A stretch of 6,000 bases of DNA from a virus. Its lineage: Duplodnaviria; Heunggongvirae; Uroviricota; Caudoviricetes. The stretch spans positions 1 to 6,000 of IMG/VR virus record IMGVR_UViG_2778261058_000017. One strand, given 5' to 3'. The stretch's first letter is position 1. Every line of letters begins with the position of its first letter. Both the position numbers and the translations under genes were made by a program. Below are positions 1 through 6,000 of the stretch, one piece after another. The notes beneath the pieces are model-generated. The model did not search any database, was not told where the DNA came from, and saw only the letters and a list, made by a program, of their open reading frames with translations.

Positions 1-235
1 AACACCCTCAGACATTATCAATTTTAGATATAGTATGTCCTTGGCGTAGATTTCTCAAGAGTGTAAACAAGGGGGGAGACTTATGCTGGAAACTTGGGAA
101 AAAGCGACTGTTATTTTGTTCAGTAAACACCATGTAAACACACTGCCAACTGGCAACCATTCAATACTCACACCATCGAACGGACTTCAGCTGACCGCGA
201 CCTGTTTCTTCATTCTCGGATAGCGGCATTCATCT

Positions 236-823
236 TTATGCTGGTTTTGCTGGCCAAGTGATGTCAGGTGCTTTCGATGTATCGACCTCCTGAAGTGCTT
301 TAATGTACCAAATCCACGCAATCAGACTCGTCTTATCTTCGTCGCTAATGATTCCCAATTGCAGTTCAGTTGTCCAGAAACTGATCTTTTCCTTAGCTTT
401 TACCAATAGAATAGCTTTTTGCTTATCAGCCACTTCAACATCAGCTGCATACTTAGCATTTGGGTCTGATACCCACTTTTTCCCATCCCATTTCTGGAAC
501 GGATCAGAAGGAGCAATATTGGTATAGCCATTATTAATAGGACCAATATAGTCGATAGTATGAGGCATACCGTCAGTAGTTGAATAAACTGTCTTACCTC
601 GATGGTCTTCTTTCAAGACCCATCCTCCATTTTCGAATACAGCAACCTTTCCTGTTAGTTCATTACCCGGATCAATATCGGTAGAATTACCCGGCATACT
701 GACGCCAATATTAATATATTCGTCTGACCATCCTATATATTCAAAAGTTACTATATCGTAGTAATAGCAGCGGATTTCACCCGGTTCCGTTGCCAGTCCA
801 TTTTCATCAAAAACAGGTTTCAT
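236..823 (-). CDS. Phage tail fibre assembly protein (lambda Tfa family)
   Basis: 195-aa ORF. Translation carries blocks I recall from lambda Tfa: EDHRGKTVY, YQKWNG-type FQKWDGKKWV, and C-terminal VDTSKAPDITWPAKP (lambda: VDTSTAPDIEWP). Start ATG 821-823 overlaps the stop of the upstream tail-fibre ORF (TAATG), the usual tail fibre to tfa coupling. Confidence 0.88.
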   Translation of the reverse strand: MKPVFDENGLATEPGEIRCYYYDIVTFEYIGWSDEYINIGVSMPGNSTDIDPGNELTGKVAVFENGGWVLKEDHRGKTVYSTTDGMPHTIDYIGPINNGYTNIAPSDPFQKWDGKKWVSDPNAKYAADVEVADKQKAILLVKAKEKISFWTTELQLGIISDEDKTSLIAWIWYIKALQEVDTSKAPDITWPAKPA

Positions 824-1635
824 TATTTAGCCCTTACTAAAAAGTTAAATGTGATATTGCGGGGACGTGTTTCGTTGCCTCCAGGATTTTGGAATGCAGG
901 TAAAGCTCCCCCTATCGGCTGACTGATTCCGTTGGTATATAAAGGAGCTGCATTCGATATTGTACCAAACACTACATTGCTACCATTTCCGCTTGTCCCT
1001 AAAAATTTATGCTCATGCATTTTGAAGTCATCTGCTTGTGCAGAAAGTAAGGTTCGCCCTCTATCCACCCCGCGCCCATCATCCCAGATACGAATAAAAT
1101 CACCCCGTGCGTCAGGTAATGCTAGCGCCGGAAACACTTTCGCCAGCACAGGGTAATCAGTGGCAGAGAATTTCGCGCCGTTGAACTTCAAAAACACCAT
1201 ACTGGACCAACTGTCGATTACAGTATTTGGCATTGCGGCGGACGGCCAGAAGAACGGAACACCAATAGCTGGAGCACCTTCTCCCAAACCAAGATTTTCG
1301 AGAGCCGTTTTCACCGTGCCATCCGATTTGATATCACCAAACGGATTCTTGCGGCTTAACAGCAGCGCGCGAAGTGCGGTACCAAAGGCAGCACCTTTTA
1401 GCTCCGCAAGACGTTCTGACCAGTCATGCGCCAGCGCGTTGTCTTCCGCCGTGTAATACGCAGCACATTTGGCGTTATCACCGTCAGTGAACAGATCCAG
1501 AACAAACGGGCCAAACAGGGTGTTAATTCCCCAGAAAATGTTATCCGGCGTGCGCCACTGATCGCCCACTTCCTTCAGTTCATGGGCTGGTTTGTTCCGC
1601 AGTTCGACCAGCGCCTGGCAATATTTATTACTCAT
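823..1635 (-). CDS. Chimeric ORF: N-terminal fragment of phage Dam-like N6-adenine methyltransferase (about aa 1-85) fused in frame to a phage tail-fibre C-terminal domain
   Basis: Likely start is ATG 1633-1635 (MSNKYCQ...), overlapping the stop of the upstream gene as TAATG, with a GGGGG Shine-Dalgarno-like run upstream; the GTG at 1668 in the ORF track is probably an over-extension. N-terminus has the W-x-TP ... NAK ... Y-T-x-ED ... W pattern of phage Dam-family methyltransferases but breaks off at GAAFG, exactly where the catalytic NPPY motif would follow. The remainder ends in [19 protein letters not shown], resembling the conserved C-terminus of P2/Mu/lambdoid tail fibres, and is coupled to the downstream tfa. 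Family assignments are from recalled motifs. Confidence 0.72.
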
Positions 1636-2123
1636 TAAGCCCCCACGTAATTCCCTGACAGATACCACTCATCACCCGGTACAGCGCGCTTGCTGCTTTT
1701 CCGTAAACACCGCTCACGACGCGCAAGAAAATTGTTTCGCTCTGGCTGGGAGTGGCTTTCACGGAATGCCGCCATCCACACCGTTGCAGCACGACGGTAT
1801 AAGCCCCTGGACTCCAGTTCTTCCGCCTGGCGGGTCAGGCACAAAATCACCCGCGGGTCGTTAGTGCCGACATAGAAATTGCGCACAGGTCTGGTTTCAC
1901 GAACTGGTTGTGGTTCCGGCTCCTGCGCTCTCTCAGTCAGGCGCGGGAAATGTCTGCGTGTATCTCCTTCACAACGGTGAGCCACACGCCCACTCTGACG
2001 TAACTTGCTTGCTGACTGCAGAACGCGCTGCCGTGAGTAACCTGCAAAAGCATCCGCAATGTCTCCGGAAGTACAGCCCGGATGGGCTTCAATGAATTTC
2101 TGAACGTCATTCAAAAGACTCAT
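1635..2123 (-). CDS. PerC/ANR-like domain protein (putative transcriptional regulator), prophage-encoded
   Basis: Open frame of 162 aa from ATG 2121-2123 (or 164 aa from the GTG at 2127-2129, which overlaps the O-like stop as GTGA). The C-terminal segment [21 protein letters not shown]...ARRERCL matches the recalled PerC/Pch/ANR signature (E-x-R-G-L-W/Y-R-R-A-A ... R-x-x-C). The N-terminal 60 aa could be a small helical DNA-binding domain. Stop overlaps the next start (TAATG). Confidence 0.65.
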
Positions 2124-2125
2124 GC

Positions 2126-3067
2126 TCACCCCCTGAATCCTGCCGGGATCTGGCTGTAGTCCACGTTGTCGTAACTGGCTTTGAAGTACGGGTCCTCGCG
2201 TTTTTCGGTGTACGTGCTGACGGACGGCGATAAGCGCAGGGAAAGCTCATCCCATTTTTCCCGCAGCTTCGACGGGCTGAGCACGTTACGGCACCAGAAC
2301 GGATCGCGACTGACGCGGCTGTACATCTCGCAGATTTGTTTATGAGTACGACCATCCTGCACACACATCAGGCGAATTTCGTTTGCCCAGGCTGTCCAGT
2401 TCGGTTCTTTGGGACGAACCACCTCGCCGTCACATTCGGCGGCATGCTCGTACAGGGCGATGATTTTTTTCCAGAGCCACTGTGCGCAGGTCAAATCATC
2501 CTGCGTCCCCCACTGGCGCTTTTTAGGGCTGAATACAACCGCATCAGGATGGCGAGTTAAAAAATCCTGTTCAGCCTTCTGCGTGTCCGGTTGCGAAGCG
2601 TCCGGACGAGAAGTTTTTTTATCTGACGGATCATGTTTTGATTTTACTGACGGATCCCCGCCAGATTCTGACGGGTGAAAACCCGCTTTTTTGCCAGATT
2701 TCGACGCATCAAATTTTGACGGGTCAGATTTTGATGCGTCAGATTTTGACGGGTCAGAATCTGACAGTTGAGAAAAAGCCGCAGCCTGAAGCTTCGCAAC
2801 GTTAAGCTGATAAACATTCGACGCATTGCGGTTACCCTGGCGACGCGCCTTACGCGTTAACCAGCCTTCTGCTTCCAGCCGTGCGATAGCCGTTCTGACG
2901 GTACTCATCCCCGCGCCAATCTGGCGGGCAATGGTTTCAATTGATGGCCAGCACACACCTTCGTCATTACTGAAATCAGCCAGGCGTGCCATAATTGCCA
3001 CGCTGGATAATTTCATGCCTGACGCTGCGCAACCATCCCATACATAGCCGGTTAATTTAGTGCTCAT
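2126..3067 (-). CDS. Phage replication initiator (lambda O-like), N-terminal winged-HTH DNA-binding domain, carrying internal iterons
   Basis: 313-aa ORF with ATG at 3065-3067 preceded by GAGG. The N-terminal about 90 aa look like the HTH domain typical of phage/plasmid replication initiators (SSVAIMARLADFSNDEGVCWPSIETIARQIGAGMSTVRTAIARLEAEGWL). The central low-complexity segment SDSDPSKSDASKSDPSKFDASKS is encoded by tandem 15-bp DNA repeats, as in lambda where ori lies inside O. Confidence 0.82.
   Translation of the reverse strand: MSTKLTGYVWDGCAASGMKLSSVAIMARLADFSNDEGVCWPSIETIARQIGAGMSTVRTAIARLEAEGWLTRKARRQGNRNASNVYQLNVAKLQAAAFSQLSDSDPSKSDASKSDPSKFDASKSGKKAGFHPSESGGDPSVKSKHDPSDKKTSRPDASQPDTQKAEQDFLTRHPDAVVFSPKKRQWGTQDDLTCAQWLWKKIIALYEHAAECDGEVVRPKEPNWTAWANEIRLMCVQDGRTHKQICEMYSRVSRDPFWCRNVLSPSKLREKWDELSLRLSPSVSTYTEKREDPYFKASYDNVDYSQIPAGFRG
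2621..2770. repeat. Putative replication origin iterons: about 8 copies of a 15-bp repeat (consensus near AGATTTTGACGGGTC) inside the O-like gene
   Basis: Five contiguous 15-bp units at 2695-2709, 2710-2724, 2725-2739, 2740-2754 and 2755-2769, plus three dispersed copies at 2621-2632, 2641-2656 and 2662-2677, all sharing the core TGACGG (TGATGC/CGACGC variants). DNA-level identity exceeds what the encoded Ser/Asp/Lys linker would need. Confidence 0.6.
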
Positions 3068-3076
3068 GACCGACCT

Positions 3077-3415
3077 CTATTTCCCTGAATTTACGACGAA
3101 ACTGTTCGAGCGGACTGAAGCATTCATGCTCATAGCCTTCGCGGAGGTAGATAACCCGTTGTGTTTCCGGCTCCCAACGAATGACTCTGACGGGTACTCC
3201 GTAGTGATCTTTGAACCAGCGGTTAACTTGTCGCAAAGGACTGTCTCCTTTTGCCGGTTAAAATCACCCACAGCCCACTCTGCAAAGCTGTGGGTTACAA
3301 TTACCCTGCCACCTGGTACATTCACTGCATAGCAATACTCCACCTTCGCTTTTCCACCCGGTACAGGAAGCGCAATCAGTTGCGAGCGACGGTAGTGTGT
3401 TGTTAAACTATTCAT
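3077..3415 (-). CDS. Hypothetical early-region protein, probably disrupted by a frameshift (intact form about 119 aa ending at 3062)
   Basis: 112-aa ORF with ATG 3413-3415 overlapping the upstream stop (ATGA). A second minus-strand frame is open from 3257 to 3062 and encodes a protein-like sequence ([60 protein letters not shown]) whose stop overlaps the O-like start. The two frames can be joined by a 1-nt indel at the T4/A4 homopolymer at 3249-3252. No family recognised. Confidence 0.5.
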
Positions 3416-3963
3416 GCGTTAGTTTCTCCACAGTCACGACACGCCACGGCGCCCGGAGCTGCACACTCGCGGGCGTCATTACTTTCTGAAATGCAAAAAA
3501 TTTTGTAGACCAGTGCTGCATGCTCCTGCAGCTTCGAAATTGAGAGGTACAGCTCGTCGTTAATTGCTGTCTTCTCATGCGGTTCCACTACACCGTCTTC
3601 AATTGCTGAACGAATCTGTTTTGAATAACTGCCGATCTGTTCAATGACCTCCAGCAGGCGTTGGTTGATATCGGCGTTGTCCACATCCTCGACATCAGGA
3701 AGAGACACAAAGACGCCATTTGCAGACTGCGCCACAGCGTCAGCAATGAAGTGAGTTCCACCAGCACGTTGCAAAATCATTGCCCATCCCAGCGGGAAAA
3801 TCTGATCGCCATCGGCACGAAGGCGGTTAAATAATGCGTTCTCTGTTACATCCAGCCAGTCAGCAGCTTCAGCGTACCCCCCCGGCAACGCTGCGATAGT
3901 TTTTCTGACAGCTTTCACGTACCACTCAGGCTGTTTTTCTACTTTCCAGTGATGCTTACCCAC
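3412..3963 (-). CDS. Phage regulatory protein in the CII position (resembles the 186-CII/CP76-type family), putative
   Basis: 183-aa ORF with GTG start at 3961-3963 preceded by AGGAGG at 6-nt spacing; overlaps the Cro-like gene by 8 nt. The N-terminal region has an HTH-like segment ([22 protein letters not shown]). Position immediately downstream of cro and size both fit long CII-type regulators. Family call is from recalled features and is tentative. Confidence 0.6.
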
Positions 3964-4216
3964 GGTTCACCTCCTGTTCCTGTGGTTTAAACCCATTCTG
4001 GTTTTGGCTAGATTGAAAACGTGCCGGATAAAGAATCTGCATTTCGCTGACTTCACCCTTAAAAAAATTGGCTAAACGTTCTGCAAGCTCGATAGATGGA
4101 ATCTGCTCCAGCCTCTCAATACGACTCAACGTCGCTGGATTGACTTGAACACCCGCAGCAACATGCTGCAAAGTGAAACCATGCGCCTTACGCACATTTC
4201 GTAATGGTGATTGCAT
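3956..4216 (-). CDS. Cro-like HTH (XRE-family) transcriptional regulator
   Basis: 86-aa ORF with ATG 4214-4216 preceded by GGAGG (complement of 4222-4226). HTH segment FTLQHVAAGVQVNPATLSRIERLEQIPSIELAERLANFF. Divergent from the CI-like repressor across a 97-bp operator region. Confidence 0.8.
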   Translation of the reverse strand: MQSPLRNVRKAHGFTLQHVAAGVQVNPATLSRIERLEQIPSIELAERLANFFKGEVSEMQILYPARFQSSQNQNGFKPQEQEVNRG

Positions 4217-4313
4217 ATGTCCTCCAAATATTGCGCGTTATGCATGTTATTTCACGCAATTATTTTGCGCAAGTTGATTTGCTTATCACGCAATAAAGAA
4301 ATGTAATAAACGC
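4217..4313. promoter_or_regulatory. Divergent promoter/operator region (OR-like) between the Cro-like and CI-like genes
   Basis: Two similarly built 29-bp sites: TTGCGCG-N15-CACGCAA (4231-4259) and TTGCGCA-N15-CACGCAA (4265-4293), with half-sites 22 bp apart. Candidate leftward promoter: -35 TTGCGC (complement of 4267-4272) and -10 TAACAT (complement of 4244-4249). Candidate promoter for the repressor: -35 TTGCTT 4279-4284 and -10 TGTAAT 4302-4307, ending 6 nt before the ATG, and no Shine-Dalgarno sequence, suggesting a leaderless mRNA as for lambda cI from PRM. Confidence 0.65.
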
Positions 4314-5006
4314 ATGAACATAGGAAACCGAGTCAGACAACTTCGCCAAGCGAAGAACATGAAAATCGCCGATCTCGCTGAAGCAATAGGAGTAGATGCG
4401 GCGAACATCTCGCGCTTAGAAACGGGTAAGCAAAAACAATTTACCGAACAAACACTGAGTAATATTGCCAAGAGCTTAGGTGTTGATATTGCTGATCTCT
4501 TTACCTCTGCCCACAAAAGTAATACTGTATATAAAAACAGTAATAATGAGGATGTTGCGCAGGTGAAGGATGTGTTCCGTATTGAAATGCTGGATATCAG
4601 TGCCAGTGCGGGAAATGGCCTTATCCAGGGCGGTGATGTCATTGATGTGATTCATGCCATCGAATACAGAACTGATAATGCTGTATCAATGTTCGGCGGA
4701 CGACCAGCCAATCACATCAAAGTTATCAACGTTCGTGGGGACAGTATGTGTCCAACCATTGAGCCAGGAGATCTCATCTTCGTTGATGTCAGCATCAATC
4801 AGTTTGATGGTGATGGTATATATGTCTTTGGTTTTGATGACAAAATATACGTTAAAAGACTTCAAATGATTCCTGACAAACTGCTGGTGATTTCTGATAA
4901 CCAGATTTACCGTGAATGGGGAATTACTAGCGAAAACGAACACCGATTCATGGTCTTTGGAAAGGTCTTAATCAGTCAGTCGCAAACCCTTAAGAGACAT
5001 AATTAA
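4314..5006 (+). CDS. CI-like prophage repressor: N-terminal HTH (XRE) plus C-terminal LexA-type S24 peptidase autocleavage domain
   Basis: 230-aa ORF. N-terminal HTH (IADLAEAIGVDAANISRLETG). Putative Ala99-Gly100 cleavage site (SASAGNG). Ser144 in GDSM and Lys181 in YVKRL, with the Ser-Lys spacing of 37 that I recall for LexA. Confidence 0.92.
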   Translation: MNIGNRVRQLRQAKNMKIADLAEAIGVDAANISRLETGKQKQFTEQTLSNIAKSLGVDIADLFTSAHKSNTVYKNSNNEDVAQVKDVFRIEMLDISASAGNGLIQGGDVIDVIHAIEYRTDNAVSMFGGRPANHIKVINVRGDSMCPTIEPGDLIFVDVSINQFDGDGIYVFGFDDKIYVKRLQMIPDKLLVISDNQIYREWGITSENEHRFMVFGKVLISQSQTLKRHN

Positions 5007-5026
5007 CCTCAATATCCCATCCATCG

Positions 5027-5047
5027 GCCACCGAAAGGTGGCTTTTT
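5027..5047 (+). terminator. Rho-independent terminator downstream of the CI-like gene
   Basis: Perfect 6-bp stem GCCACC (5027-5032), loop GAAA, GGTGGC (5037-5042), followed by TTTTT (5043-5047), 20 nt after the repressor stop. Confidence 0.7.
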
Positions 5048-5063
5048 ATTACCTATAAAGTTA

Positions 5064-5097
5064 CATATCTCGCAAATATTACTTGCATATCTCGCAA
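5064..5097. promoter_or_regulatory. Putative secondary (OL-like) operator: direct repeat of CATATCTCGCAA, 22 bp apart
   Basis: Identical 12-mers at 5064-5075 and 5086-5097. The 10-bp core TATCTCGCAA matches the OR half-site TATCACGCAA (4284-4293) at 9 of 10 positions. A possible promoter overlaps (-35 TTGCAT 5083-5088, -10 TATCTT 5106-5111). Confidence 0.4.
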
Positions 5098-5260
5098 TTT
5101 AATTTTATCTTTTGTTCCAGACCAACTACAGGATTACAACAAAATCTGGTTGCAACACGGTGCATGTGTCGTAAGCAGTCAGTAAATGTCAAAAACGAAC
5201 AGGCAGGACGCCCACGAAGTAGCCGCCTGGGGCATATGAAGTCTAGGGTGATTCGTTAGC

Positions 5261-5286
5261 AACAAAAAAGCGCCCTACAGGACGCT
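5261..5286 (-). terminator. Hairpin plus T-run: candidate intrinsic terminator on the minus strand (alternatively a boxB-like hairpin of a plus-strand antitermination site)
   Basis: Stem AGCGCCC (5269-5275), loop TACA, GGACGCT (5280-5286), with one mismatch. On the minus strand it is followed by TTTTTTGTT (complement of 5261-5269). On the plus strand it lies 2 nt upstream of the boxA-like element. Confidence 0.4.
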
Positions 5287-5288
5287 TA

Positions 5289-5301
5289 GCTCTTTAACAA
5301 T
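5289..5301 (+). promoter_or_regulatory. boxA-like element GCTCTTTAACAAT (NusB/NusE-binding type antitermination signal)
   Basis: 13-nt run matching the recalled E. coli rrn leader boxA (TGCTCTTTAACAATTTATCA) and the boxA consensus GCTCTT(T)A. It sits in the plus-strand leader about 45 nt upstream of the small ORF at 5346, i.e. in the position of nutL relative to cI in lambda. Confidence 0.5.
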
Positions 5302-5345
5302 CTGGTCCCCATCAACAAGTAACTGATAACTTGAGGAGGTGTGAA

Positions 5346-5552
5346 ATGCACAAAACAGAACCCAAAATCGTCGCGCCCGGATACACAAATGAGGAAATTT
5401 ACGAGTGGATGGCAAAGAAGCTGGCAGCTATAAACCAGCTTCGTGAAGTGCTGTCTTATCGACAGGAAACAATAGACTCCTTAAAAAAACTGGATCAGGA
5501 AATCACGGTTTTATCACAGGATGTTACTTTAGATATTGTGCAGACAAATTAG
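5346..5552 (+). CDS. Small hypothetical protein (68 aa), predicted helical; first gene downstream of the cI-distal operator/boxA leader
   Basis: ATG at 5346 preceded by a strong GAGGAGG (5333-5339) at 6-nt spacing; the TTG at 5331 in the ORF track is unlikely to be the start. Not Arg-rich, so not an N-like antiterminator. Its 3' end overlaps the convergent minus-strand gene by 29 nt. Confidence 0.55.
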   Translation: MHKTEPKIVAPGYTNEEIYEWMAKKLAAINQLREVLSYRQETIDSLKKLDQEITVLSQDVTLDIVQTN

Positions 5553-6000
5553 GATCCCATTCATTTTCGTCAAAATCATCAAAGTGATGAATTTGTGATC
5601 TCCAGTCTCGATAATCTAAAAATTTCTGGGCGGTTACGCTTATTTTATCAAGTGTGAGTTCATCCTGAATTGAAAGAAGAAGTTCATCAAATTTCATCTC
5701 ATTAATCTGTTTTGGCATCCAGTGATGCTTCATCAGAATAAGGTGAACCAGAGCCTTTTTCCCATTCAACTGATTATAGGGAGTGCCGAATTTCTTCCGG
5801 TGCTCATGTAAGACAAGGTCCAGAAGAGTAAGTAATGTTGCCCTTGATTCCACTTTGCTTATTTCGACTGATGACACTACCCCACTGATTTCAATGCCCC
5901 GATACTTTCCAACATTTTCACAGTGGGATTTGTACAGCGTGTATGTTAGCGCCAGTGATATAAGACGGTAATTCACCATTTGGATTGTCCGCTCCACCCA
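5524..6000 (-). CDS. Hypothetical protein, AT-rich accessory (moron-like) gene; 5' end probably beyond the window
   Basis: Open frame from the window edge to the TAA stop at 5524-5526, at least 158 codons. The GTG at 5997 and the ATG at 5977-5979 are possible but unconvincing starts. Lower GC than the replication genes, by eye. Oriented against the putative early-left transcript. No family recognised. Confidence 0.6.
   Translation of the reverse strand, partial: WVERTIQMVNYRLISLALTYTLYKSHCENVGKYRGIEISGVVSSVEISKVESRATLLTLLDLVLHEHRKKFGTPYNQLNGKKALVHLILMKHHWMPKQINEMKFDELLLSIQDELTLDKISVTAQKFLDYRDWRSQIHHFDDFDENEWDPNLSAQYLK

Follow-up and report, generated by a model that had tools for sequence, protein, structure and literature searches.

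An rrn-type boxA without N or boxB in the early-left leader of lambdoid prophages, back-to-back with a putative antisense terminator and beside a structured RNA

How does transcription traverse the early-left operon of a lambdoid phage that carries no N gene? Lambdoid phages are known to antiterminate early transcription either through N and nut sites or through put RNA. Neither is present in many of those sequenced, and the way in which their long early-left operons escape Rho and terminators has been raised as a question for phages of the LLS/ST64B type (PMC12315714). Phages of the ST64B/phiNP/LLS type lack N, and a 2025 study guessed at a put-like mechanism for them without identifying the element (PMC12315714). 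A 6,000-nt stretch of viral DNA (hereafter the window; positions 1 to 6,000 of IMG/VR record IMGVR_UViG_2778261058_000017) raises the same question, and an earlier, sequence-only reading of it had singled out a hairpin and an rrn-type boxA as a candidate antitermination site. The locus offers a concrete and testable answer: a canonical host boxA without N, joined to the oppositely oriented terminator of an antisense "moron" gene and placed beside a structured leader RNA of 68 nt. We propose, with a probability of about one half, that the PL leader of this N-less lambdoid (SfII/SfIV/e14-type) prophage contains a two-strand composite module in which an antisense terminator is combined with a boxA that opposes Rho.

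The window covers the immunity and early region of a defective lambdoid prophage of the SfII/SfIV/e14 type, from E. coli or Shigella. Positions 4950-5600 are 98-99% identical to many E. coli chromosomes and form a mosaic of sequences from phage SfII (4950-5257) and phage SfIV (5191-5600). A gene for a cI-type repressor with HTH and S24 peptidase domains (4314-5006; Pfam Peptidase_S24 and HTH_3; PHROG transcriptional repressor) shares 98% identity with the cI region of SfII. The plus-strand location of this gene sets the direction of the early-left (PL) operon, rightwards on that strand; the minus strand carries the cro-like, CII-like, and O-like genes, which are leftward. The repressor gene is followed on the plus strand by its intrinsic terminator (5026-5050; GGCCACCGAAAGGTGGCT then TTTTTAT), which is annotated in SfII, and by OL-type operator repeats that consist of a 15-nt direct repeat (5061-5075 and 5083-5097; 93% identical). 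The predicted PL on the same strand (-35 TTGCAT at 5083-5088, a 17-nt spacer, and -10 TATCTT at 5106-5111) overlaps the operator repeats (5061-5111), and the layout of operators and PL is the same in phage phiNP. The window PL matches the consensus weakly and falls under the threshold of the consensus scanner, and hence it is a predicted promoter; the PL of SfIV scores 11/12.

Two genes downstream of PL face each other. The first PL-sense gene (5346-5552, plus strand) has a Shine-Dalgarno (SD) sequence, GAGGAGG, at 5333-5339 and encodes a 68-aa product that matches phrog_1744 over its full length (E = 5e-34) and is not Arg-rich. The second gene (5524-5958, minus strand) is oriented antisense to the operon. 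It is a homolog of SfIV orf36 according to the SfIV annotation, has the RefSeq product name "ECs1072 family," and matches phrog_5286 (E = 1e-87), with the match beginning at residue 18 of a longer ORF. The 3' UTR of this gene is antisense to the small plus-strand gene. The position given earlier for the boxA agrees with this map: it lies past the cI-like gene, its terminator, and the two operator repeats, and ahead of the first plus-strand ORF at 5346-5552.

Within the O-like replication gene, four to five 15-nt iterons (2695-2769) are a likely origin, and they explain a spurious Rfam match to mir-5880 and a repeated DPSKSDASKS peptide. A 164-aa ORF in the early-right operon (1635-2129, minus strand) has a PerC-family transcriptional activator domain. 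A chimeric ORF (823-1668, minus strand) joins a partial Dam methylase domain (its first 60 positions out of 169) to the C-terminus of a tail fiber, and a tail-fiber assembly gene (236-823) comes after it. A large deletion thus joined the early region to tail genes, and the prophage in the window is defective.

The 13-mer at 5289-5301 on the plus strand, GCTCTTTAACAAT, is identical to the boxA of the rrnB leader. Its core (5289-5299; GCTCTTTAACA) scored 11/11 against GYTCTTTAANA, which is the experimentally grounded consensus of gamma-proteobacterial boxA sequences (PMC5725501), and the full length scored 13/13 against rrnB (rrn sequence, UGCUCUUUAACAA). The resemblance to rrn leaders noted in the sequence-only reading is exact in the MG1655 rrnB leader (...gcggcacTGCTCTTTAACAATttatc; over a wider stretch, GCGGCAC-TGCTCTTTAACAAT-TTATC). 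As was also supposed, a chance occurrence in 6 kb is unlikely. The 13-mer is the sole match within the window, an exact match was absent from all of 200 dinucleotide shuffles, the probability of a 13/13 identity with rrn by chance is ∼0, and even matches with up to two mismatches have an expected count of 0.17. In the literature, we found no prior description of this boxA in SfIV, SfV, or e14 or in lists of Nus targets. Judged by its sequence, GCUCUUUAACA looks like a bona fide and functional boxA on the plus strand.

The module shares with lambdoid nut sites its location at the nutL position, past the repressor gene and OL/PL, but it differs in what accompanies the boxA. No conserved boxB hairpin is present 3' of the boxA, where the sole candidate is a weak A/U hairpin with an 8-nt loop (5318-5335) that was rejected by eye as a boxB, and the sequence 3' of the boxA is unrelated among copies of the module. 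The window has no Arg-rich N-like ORF; likewise, the annotation of the region from 20 to 39.8 kb in the functional phage SfIV, which includes both early operons, has Q but no N. A counterpart in the PR operon is also absent, as no other match to the consensus within one mismatch, and thus no second boxA that could represent nutR, is present in the window. An rrn-like boxA is not in itself unusual in a lambdoid leader. Phage P22 has near-rrn-type boxA sequences in nutL (CGCTCTTTAAC) and nutR (CGCTCTTTACCAATCTGAACC), both with a boxB, and the spacer of P22 nutR resembles the AACAATCTGG that follows the boxA in the window. Phage lambda has boxA CGCTCTTAA, also with a boxB. The unusual part is the absence of boxB and N. 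The sequence-only reading had likewise seen no N-like protein nearby and had raised a mode of antitermination that is rrn-like and depends on host factors only. Since the boxA is canonical, is at the nutL position, and is accompanied by neither an N-like protein nor a boxB, it is a strong candidate for antitermination by host factors acting alone, which would be the best reading of this site.

The hairpin that precedes the boxA (AAGCGCCCTACAGGACGCTT; 5268-5287) was first read on the plus strand as a 7-bp stem. Seven Watson-Crick pairs are indeed present on that strand, where a C.A mismatch breaks the stem (-6.5 kcal/mol). On the minus strand, the stem is an unbroken 8 bp with a U.G pair, has a 4-nt loop and a free energy of -11.0 kcal/mol, and is followed by TTTTGTTGCT, with six U. 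A terminator scan accordingly identified an intrinsic terminator for leftward, antisense transcription (5258-5287, minus strand; 8-bp stem 5287-5268 then the U-tract). Across 20 distinct variants of the hairpin from viral contigs, the minus-strand fold is better in 19 and the plus-strand fold in none; one variant has two C.A/U.G positions, and in the copy from a Klebsiella phage the minus-strand loop is C(UUCG)G. Of the 42 unique contexts downstream of the module, 41 have a minus-strand ORF (80-260 aa, from many unrelated families) that stops 8-222 nt away. The hairpin thus has the features of a minus-strand Rho-independent terminator: a GC-rich stem, a short loop, a U-tract, and a place downstream of a gene. 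A search with the hairpin alone found 90 unique contexts, ∼50 of them without a boxA, and its frequency without boxA marks it as a generic phage intrinsic terminator. What had been entered as a caveat, that the hairpin could be a minus-strand terminator, is now the favored interpretation, and we predict that the hairpin is the intrinsic terminator of the antisense gene at 5524-5958 and not an analog of boxB.

These data bear on the model with which the locus was first explained, in which the hairpin and boxA jointly form a plus-strand antitermination site with the boxB-boxA arrangement of rrn. The order and spacing (hairpin, 1-2 nt, boxA) are like those of rrnB, and the plus-strand hairpin can still form, in a fold that would bring the upstream structured RNA near the boxA. 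But the conserved C.A on the plus strand is a U.G on the minus strand, at two positions in one variant, and the UUCG loop and the U-tract are also on the minus strand. The two parts are moreover separable in both directions, the hairpin being found without boxA elsewhere and the boxA without the hairpin in Providencia phage PR1, and there is no GU-rich, boxC-like sequence after the boxA (CTGGTCCCCATCAAC follows here and TTTATCAGACAATCTGTGTGGGCAC in rrnB). The same-strand hairpin and the boxC of an rrn boxB-boxA-boxC site are therefore both wanting, the hairpin having been selected as minus-strand RNA, and we disfavor the joint plus-strand model as very unlikely.

If the hairpin and boxA are parts of one module, their arrangement should be informative across phages. 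We defined the module as A(4-8)-hairpin-N-GCTCTTTAA(N)AAT and found it with many unrelated flanks in IMG/VR contigs and representative genomes from at least 13 genera of Enterobacterales (Escherichia, Shigella, Enterobacter, Citrobacter, Kosakonia, Raoultella, Buttiauxella, Atlantibacter, Scandinavium, Mangrovibacter, Sodalis, Symbiopectobacterium, and others). Of 49 unique upstream contexts, 46 have a gene for a cI/C2/LexA-type repressor on the same strand as the boxA, at a distance of 158-894 nt, and the reversed orientation was never observed. The repressors are 35-100% identical to references, and thus represent many immunity types. The equivalence to nutL suggested for the window therefore extends to many prophages of different immunity types, in which the same place in the PL leader is kept. 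By these comparisons, the module appears specific to the nutL position.

The pattern of variation within the module is consistent with recognition of the boxA. Retrieval by the hairpin only collects loci independently of the boxA sequence, and it yielded 37 boxA-bearing contexts, 36 of which have GCTCTTTAA (positions 1-9) unchanged and one of which has a core substitution. Conservation of the 13-mer in related prophages had been named as a check on the original idea, and the core withstands it. Loci in the same set vary in the loop, at position -1 (A/C/T), and at position 10 (C/A/T/G), which corresponds to the N of GYTCTTTAANA and is the only base of the core that varies freely. Conservation in this hairpin-anchored set thus follows the recognition code, with the core fixed and the degenerate positions free. 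T5-like Providencia phages provide a separate case. Their boxA, CGCTCTTTAAAAAT, is 9 nt past the upstream structured RNA, has no hairpin, and has only sense-strand pre-early genes downstream, suggesting that it is kept for the sense strand. In one of these phages, vB_PreS_PR1, the structured RNA in the terminal repeat (2000-2095 of the locus analyzed) is ∼10 nt after the predicted promoter of the pre-early operon and is followed by the boxA. The repressor-linked position, the pattern of variation, and the Providencia case together argue against an origin of the motif that is purely accidental or purely due to the minus strand.

A role for the boxA on the minus strand can nevertheless be formulated. 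The 3' end of the antisense mRNA carries AUUGUUAAAGAGC before an Hfq-type terminator and might act as an anti-boxA RNA, pairing with the boxA in rrn leaders or with that of a superinfecting lambdoid phage. The complement of boxA directly 5' of a strong, U-tailed terminator is the architecture of an sRNA derived from a 3' UTR, and many unrelated upstream genes have the same 3' end in common. This alternative is without precedent, however, and we regard it as highly improbable, because the variation fits recognition by protein (NusB/S10) and not uniform base pairing and because phage PR1 has a sense-oriented boxA with no antisense gene.

The conservation of boxA could alternatively reflect recent common ancestry, with the boxA a functionless passenger in a young terminator cassette that is mobile by recombination. 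Strong conservation also extends to the stem (GCGCC/GGACGC) and to AATCTGGATATCC in the flank, identity exceeds 95% among many E. coli copies, and the hairpin by itself is common as a terminator in phages, so part of the conservation of the boxA could stem from recent spread of one cassette. A passenger is nonetheless an unlikely explanation for a core that stays fixed while loops differ in 20 variants and flanks are unrelated, for variable positions that are exactly the degenerate ones of the consensus, for a boxA kept without a hairpin in Providencia phages, for a module restricted to PL leaders in one orientation (46 of 49 contexts and none reversed), and for an identity of 13/13 with rrn that has a probability of ∼0 by chance.

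We suggest that the module is a cassette in which the terminator would insulate PL, OL, and cI and the boxA would give Rho resistance across the antisense gene. On the minus strand, the hairpin and U-tract (5287-5258) would end the transcript of the convergent gene or genes (5524-5958) before it reaches PL/OL and runs on across the repressor gene in the antisense direction. On the plus strand, RNA polymerase from PL would transcribe the boxA, which NusB-S10 would then bind. We infer that, with NusA, NusG, and SuhB, this would lead to an rrn-type, Rho-resistant elongation complex, and that the 68-nt RNA probably acts on the same complex. The PL transcript could then cross 0.45 to ∼0.9 kb that is untranslatable in the PL sense, without N or boxB, and continue into the distal early-left genes, which in SfIV extend through xis and int. 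In that phage, the PL operon covers ∼4.3 kb up to xis and int, with two antisense genes (∼0.9 kb) after the small ORF.

Rho is the assumed obstacle because there is no strong hairpin terminator on the plus strand; in the window and in SfIV, the only intrinsic terminator downstream is a weak candidate (window 5627-5642). Untranslated RNA of this kind is a target of Rho (PMC7665894). A segment inside the antisense gene (5840-5919, plus strand) is C-rich and G-poor (C 33%, G 11%), rut-like, and untranslated in the PL sense. Together with host Nus factors, a boxA can oppose Rho without N (PMC5725501), and ahead of Salmonella CRISPR arrays a boxA naturally does so (PMC7665894). The anti-Rho role predicted here is therefore like the one shown for those arrays (PMC7665894). 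Two counterpoints apply: Nus factors repress as well as antiterminate, as in suhB, and rRNA is intrinsically Rho-resistant, with Nus factors at rrn serving mainly RNA folding and not anti-Rho activity (PMC5725501).

The proposed module resembles the rrn boxA and its Nus complex (NusB-S10-NusA-NusG-SuhB) in several respects. Its 13 nt are identical to the boxA of rrnB, it is close to the predicted promoter in a leader with long untranslated RNA after it, and no phage protein is necessary in the model. Unlike the rrn boxA, it is in a phage early operon, lacks a boxC-like sequence, has an adjacent hairpin that belongs to the other strand, and would protect a stretch that is the antisense of a protein gene and not a structural RNA. 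The need to cross an antisense gene is shared with lambda and P22, in which antisense sieB is right after N/24 in the PL operon; there, the crossing is solved with N. Association of boxA with antisense genes is also evident when leaders are collected by the 68-nt element only. The boxA core is present in 11 of 82 such leaders (∼0.5 expected), and an antisense ORF of at least 100 aa is present in 9 of 10 leaders with boxA versus 12 of 61 without (Fisher p = 3e-5, with related phages counted as independent). The 12 leaders that have an antisense gene and no boxA indicate that the boxA is not required to cross one and that there are other ways to do so.

Nus factors could also act at this boxA in the opposite sense, by occluding or remodeling the ribosome-binding site of the 68-aa ORF and thereby lowering translation and exposing the transcript to Rho termination, so that the site would be an attenuator. 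A boxA less than 50 nt from a start codon is the criterion that found BoxA-mediated repression, in suhB and for a ParE-like toxin (PMC5725501). The boxA in the window is within this distance, with the SD 32 nt downstream and the SD and ATG at 5333-5348, and in this respect resembles that of the suhB 5' UTR, an mRNA leader whose consensus boxA also precedes a start codon by less than 50 nt. Most copies of the module, in contrast, are without a nearby start codon. In 23 of 42 contexts, the module is followed first by the end of a minus-strand gene, and no start codon on the sense strand is close by, so control of one particular ribosome-binding site cannot be the common function of the module. 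An attenuator at the head of an operon with xis and int would also need a mechanism for relief, of which none is visible, and the logic of the operon calls for read-through rather than attenuation. Attenuation after the manner of suhB is thus quite unlikely, and we retain the reading in which boxA opposes Rho.

On the plus strand, the partner of boxA is probably not the hairpin but the 68-nt structured leader RNA upstream of it, which we call the E element (5192-5259). An outer stem of 6 bp (5194-5199/5252-5257) encloses a core, GCCCACGAAGTAGC (5210-5223), and a hairpin of 5 bp (5226-5230/5243-5247). The core, GCCCACGAAGUAGC as RNA, was the search anchor for collecting copies, and it is near-invariant also in anchor-independent matches; conservation extends to the loop GGCAUAUGAAG and to the GAUGA junction. 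In an alignment of 109 distinct copies, 93.9% of cells are paired compared to 20-46% in slid controls, 335 cells are doubly changed, and 10 pairs have compensatory changes. The covariance model scores 85 bits in the window. Folding of the single sequence (5110-5345 and 5185-5310, either strand) gave nonsignificant z-scores, so the structure had to come from comparison. The strand of the element was assigned from gene context because the asymmetry between G.U and C.A is ambiguous: G.U at 19-44 favors plus and C.A at 50-63 favors minus. There is no Rfam family for the element, as judged from a scan of the window at E<=10 and of eight related loci at gathering thresholds; the matches in the window at E<=10 are miRNAs and snoRNAs only and are spurious. 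Inspection by eye led us to reject a terminator-like match on the minus strand (5215-5199), the T-run of which other copies do not conserve, as well as GAUGA/GAAG as a hammerhead-like motif and an IHF site over AACAATCTGGATATCC.

The E element is more widely distributed than the boxA. It is conserved in SfV, SfII, SfIV, phiNP, ST64B, SPN3UB, ZF40, and mEp237, as well as in phages of Yersinia, Pantoea, Klebsiella, and Providencia, and it is present without the boxA module in the e14 prophage of E. coli K-12, in the ymfK-ymfJ spacer. Mosaic breakpoints coincide exactly with its edges. The element is a median of 141 nt past the repressor gene, on the same strand in 50 of 51 cases, and it starts within ∼10 nt of the predicted PL start in most phages (overall, within ∼10-75 nt). 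The upper end of this range is seen in the SfII-like immunity type of the window, where ∼75 nt (5118-5191, plus strand) separate the predicted PL start from the element; this spacer is missing in SfIV, SfV, and phiNP, in which the element starts ∼10 nt past the start site. In the window, the boxA is ∼30 nt downstream of the element. The element is directly upstream in 46 of 72 contexts of the module, and several more have divergent versions. Comparison of these leaders suggests that the boxA is an optional add-on to the element.

The E element may be the main processivity element of these leaders. The genes downstream differ between phages, and the simplest guess is therefore that the element acts co-transcriptionally on RNA polymerase. 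More speculatively, the element, with boxA as an optional partner, could be an unrecognized device for N-independent processive antitermination that is put-like in function and unrelated to put in sequence. Such a device would modify RNA polymerase at the start of the early operon in SfV, SfII, SfIV, ST64B, phiNP, ZF40, K-12 e14, and T5-like Providencia phages; this extension is only tentative. In HK022-type phages, put suppresses terminators independently of factors and is blocked by mutations in the zinc-binding domain of rpoC. Like put of HK022/HK639, the element is a structured RNA of ∼70 nt with two helices that starts within ∼10 nt of the PL start in most phages. The sequences are dissimilar on reading, and the covariance model has no match in the put regions of HK022 or HK639. 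Unlike put, the element is present in a single copy per phage, with no equivalent of putR. One carrier moreover encodes a homolog of N. In that locus (L082, 5790-6200), the element is 245 nt upstream of the gene for a P22 gp24-like N homolog (KMRRHLERS...NIIDEAFG) with no canonical boxA between them, and the element is therefore not simply a substitute for N.

The systems needed to examine these proposals are at hand. The whole module is in the culturable Shigella phage SfIV and the E element is in e14 of K-12, so standard nus, rho, and rpoC genetics are applicable. If the reading of a Rho-opposing boxA is true, the natural targets of boxA, so far few (rrn, suhB, a toxin gene, and CRISPR arrays), would come to include phage operons.

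PL leaders of related phages contain additional RNA structures. Those of the ST64B type (L214, ∼4650-4840; L183; L012, 2060-2260) have an extra RNA of ∼200 nt, with no match in Rfam, that is closed by a long-range helix of ∼17 bp, GGTATCTTCGGGAGGGG ... CCCCGCCCGAAGATACTT. Another group of leaders (L005, 2455-2500, and "type B" leaders such as L066 and L019) has a recurring piece, AAACGTTCCGC(Y)(R)GCC..GGCG, that forms a small GC hairpin with covarying bases and is placed between the 68-nt element, or a remnant of it, and the boxA module or the first gene.
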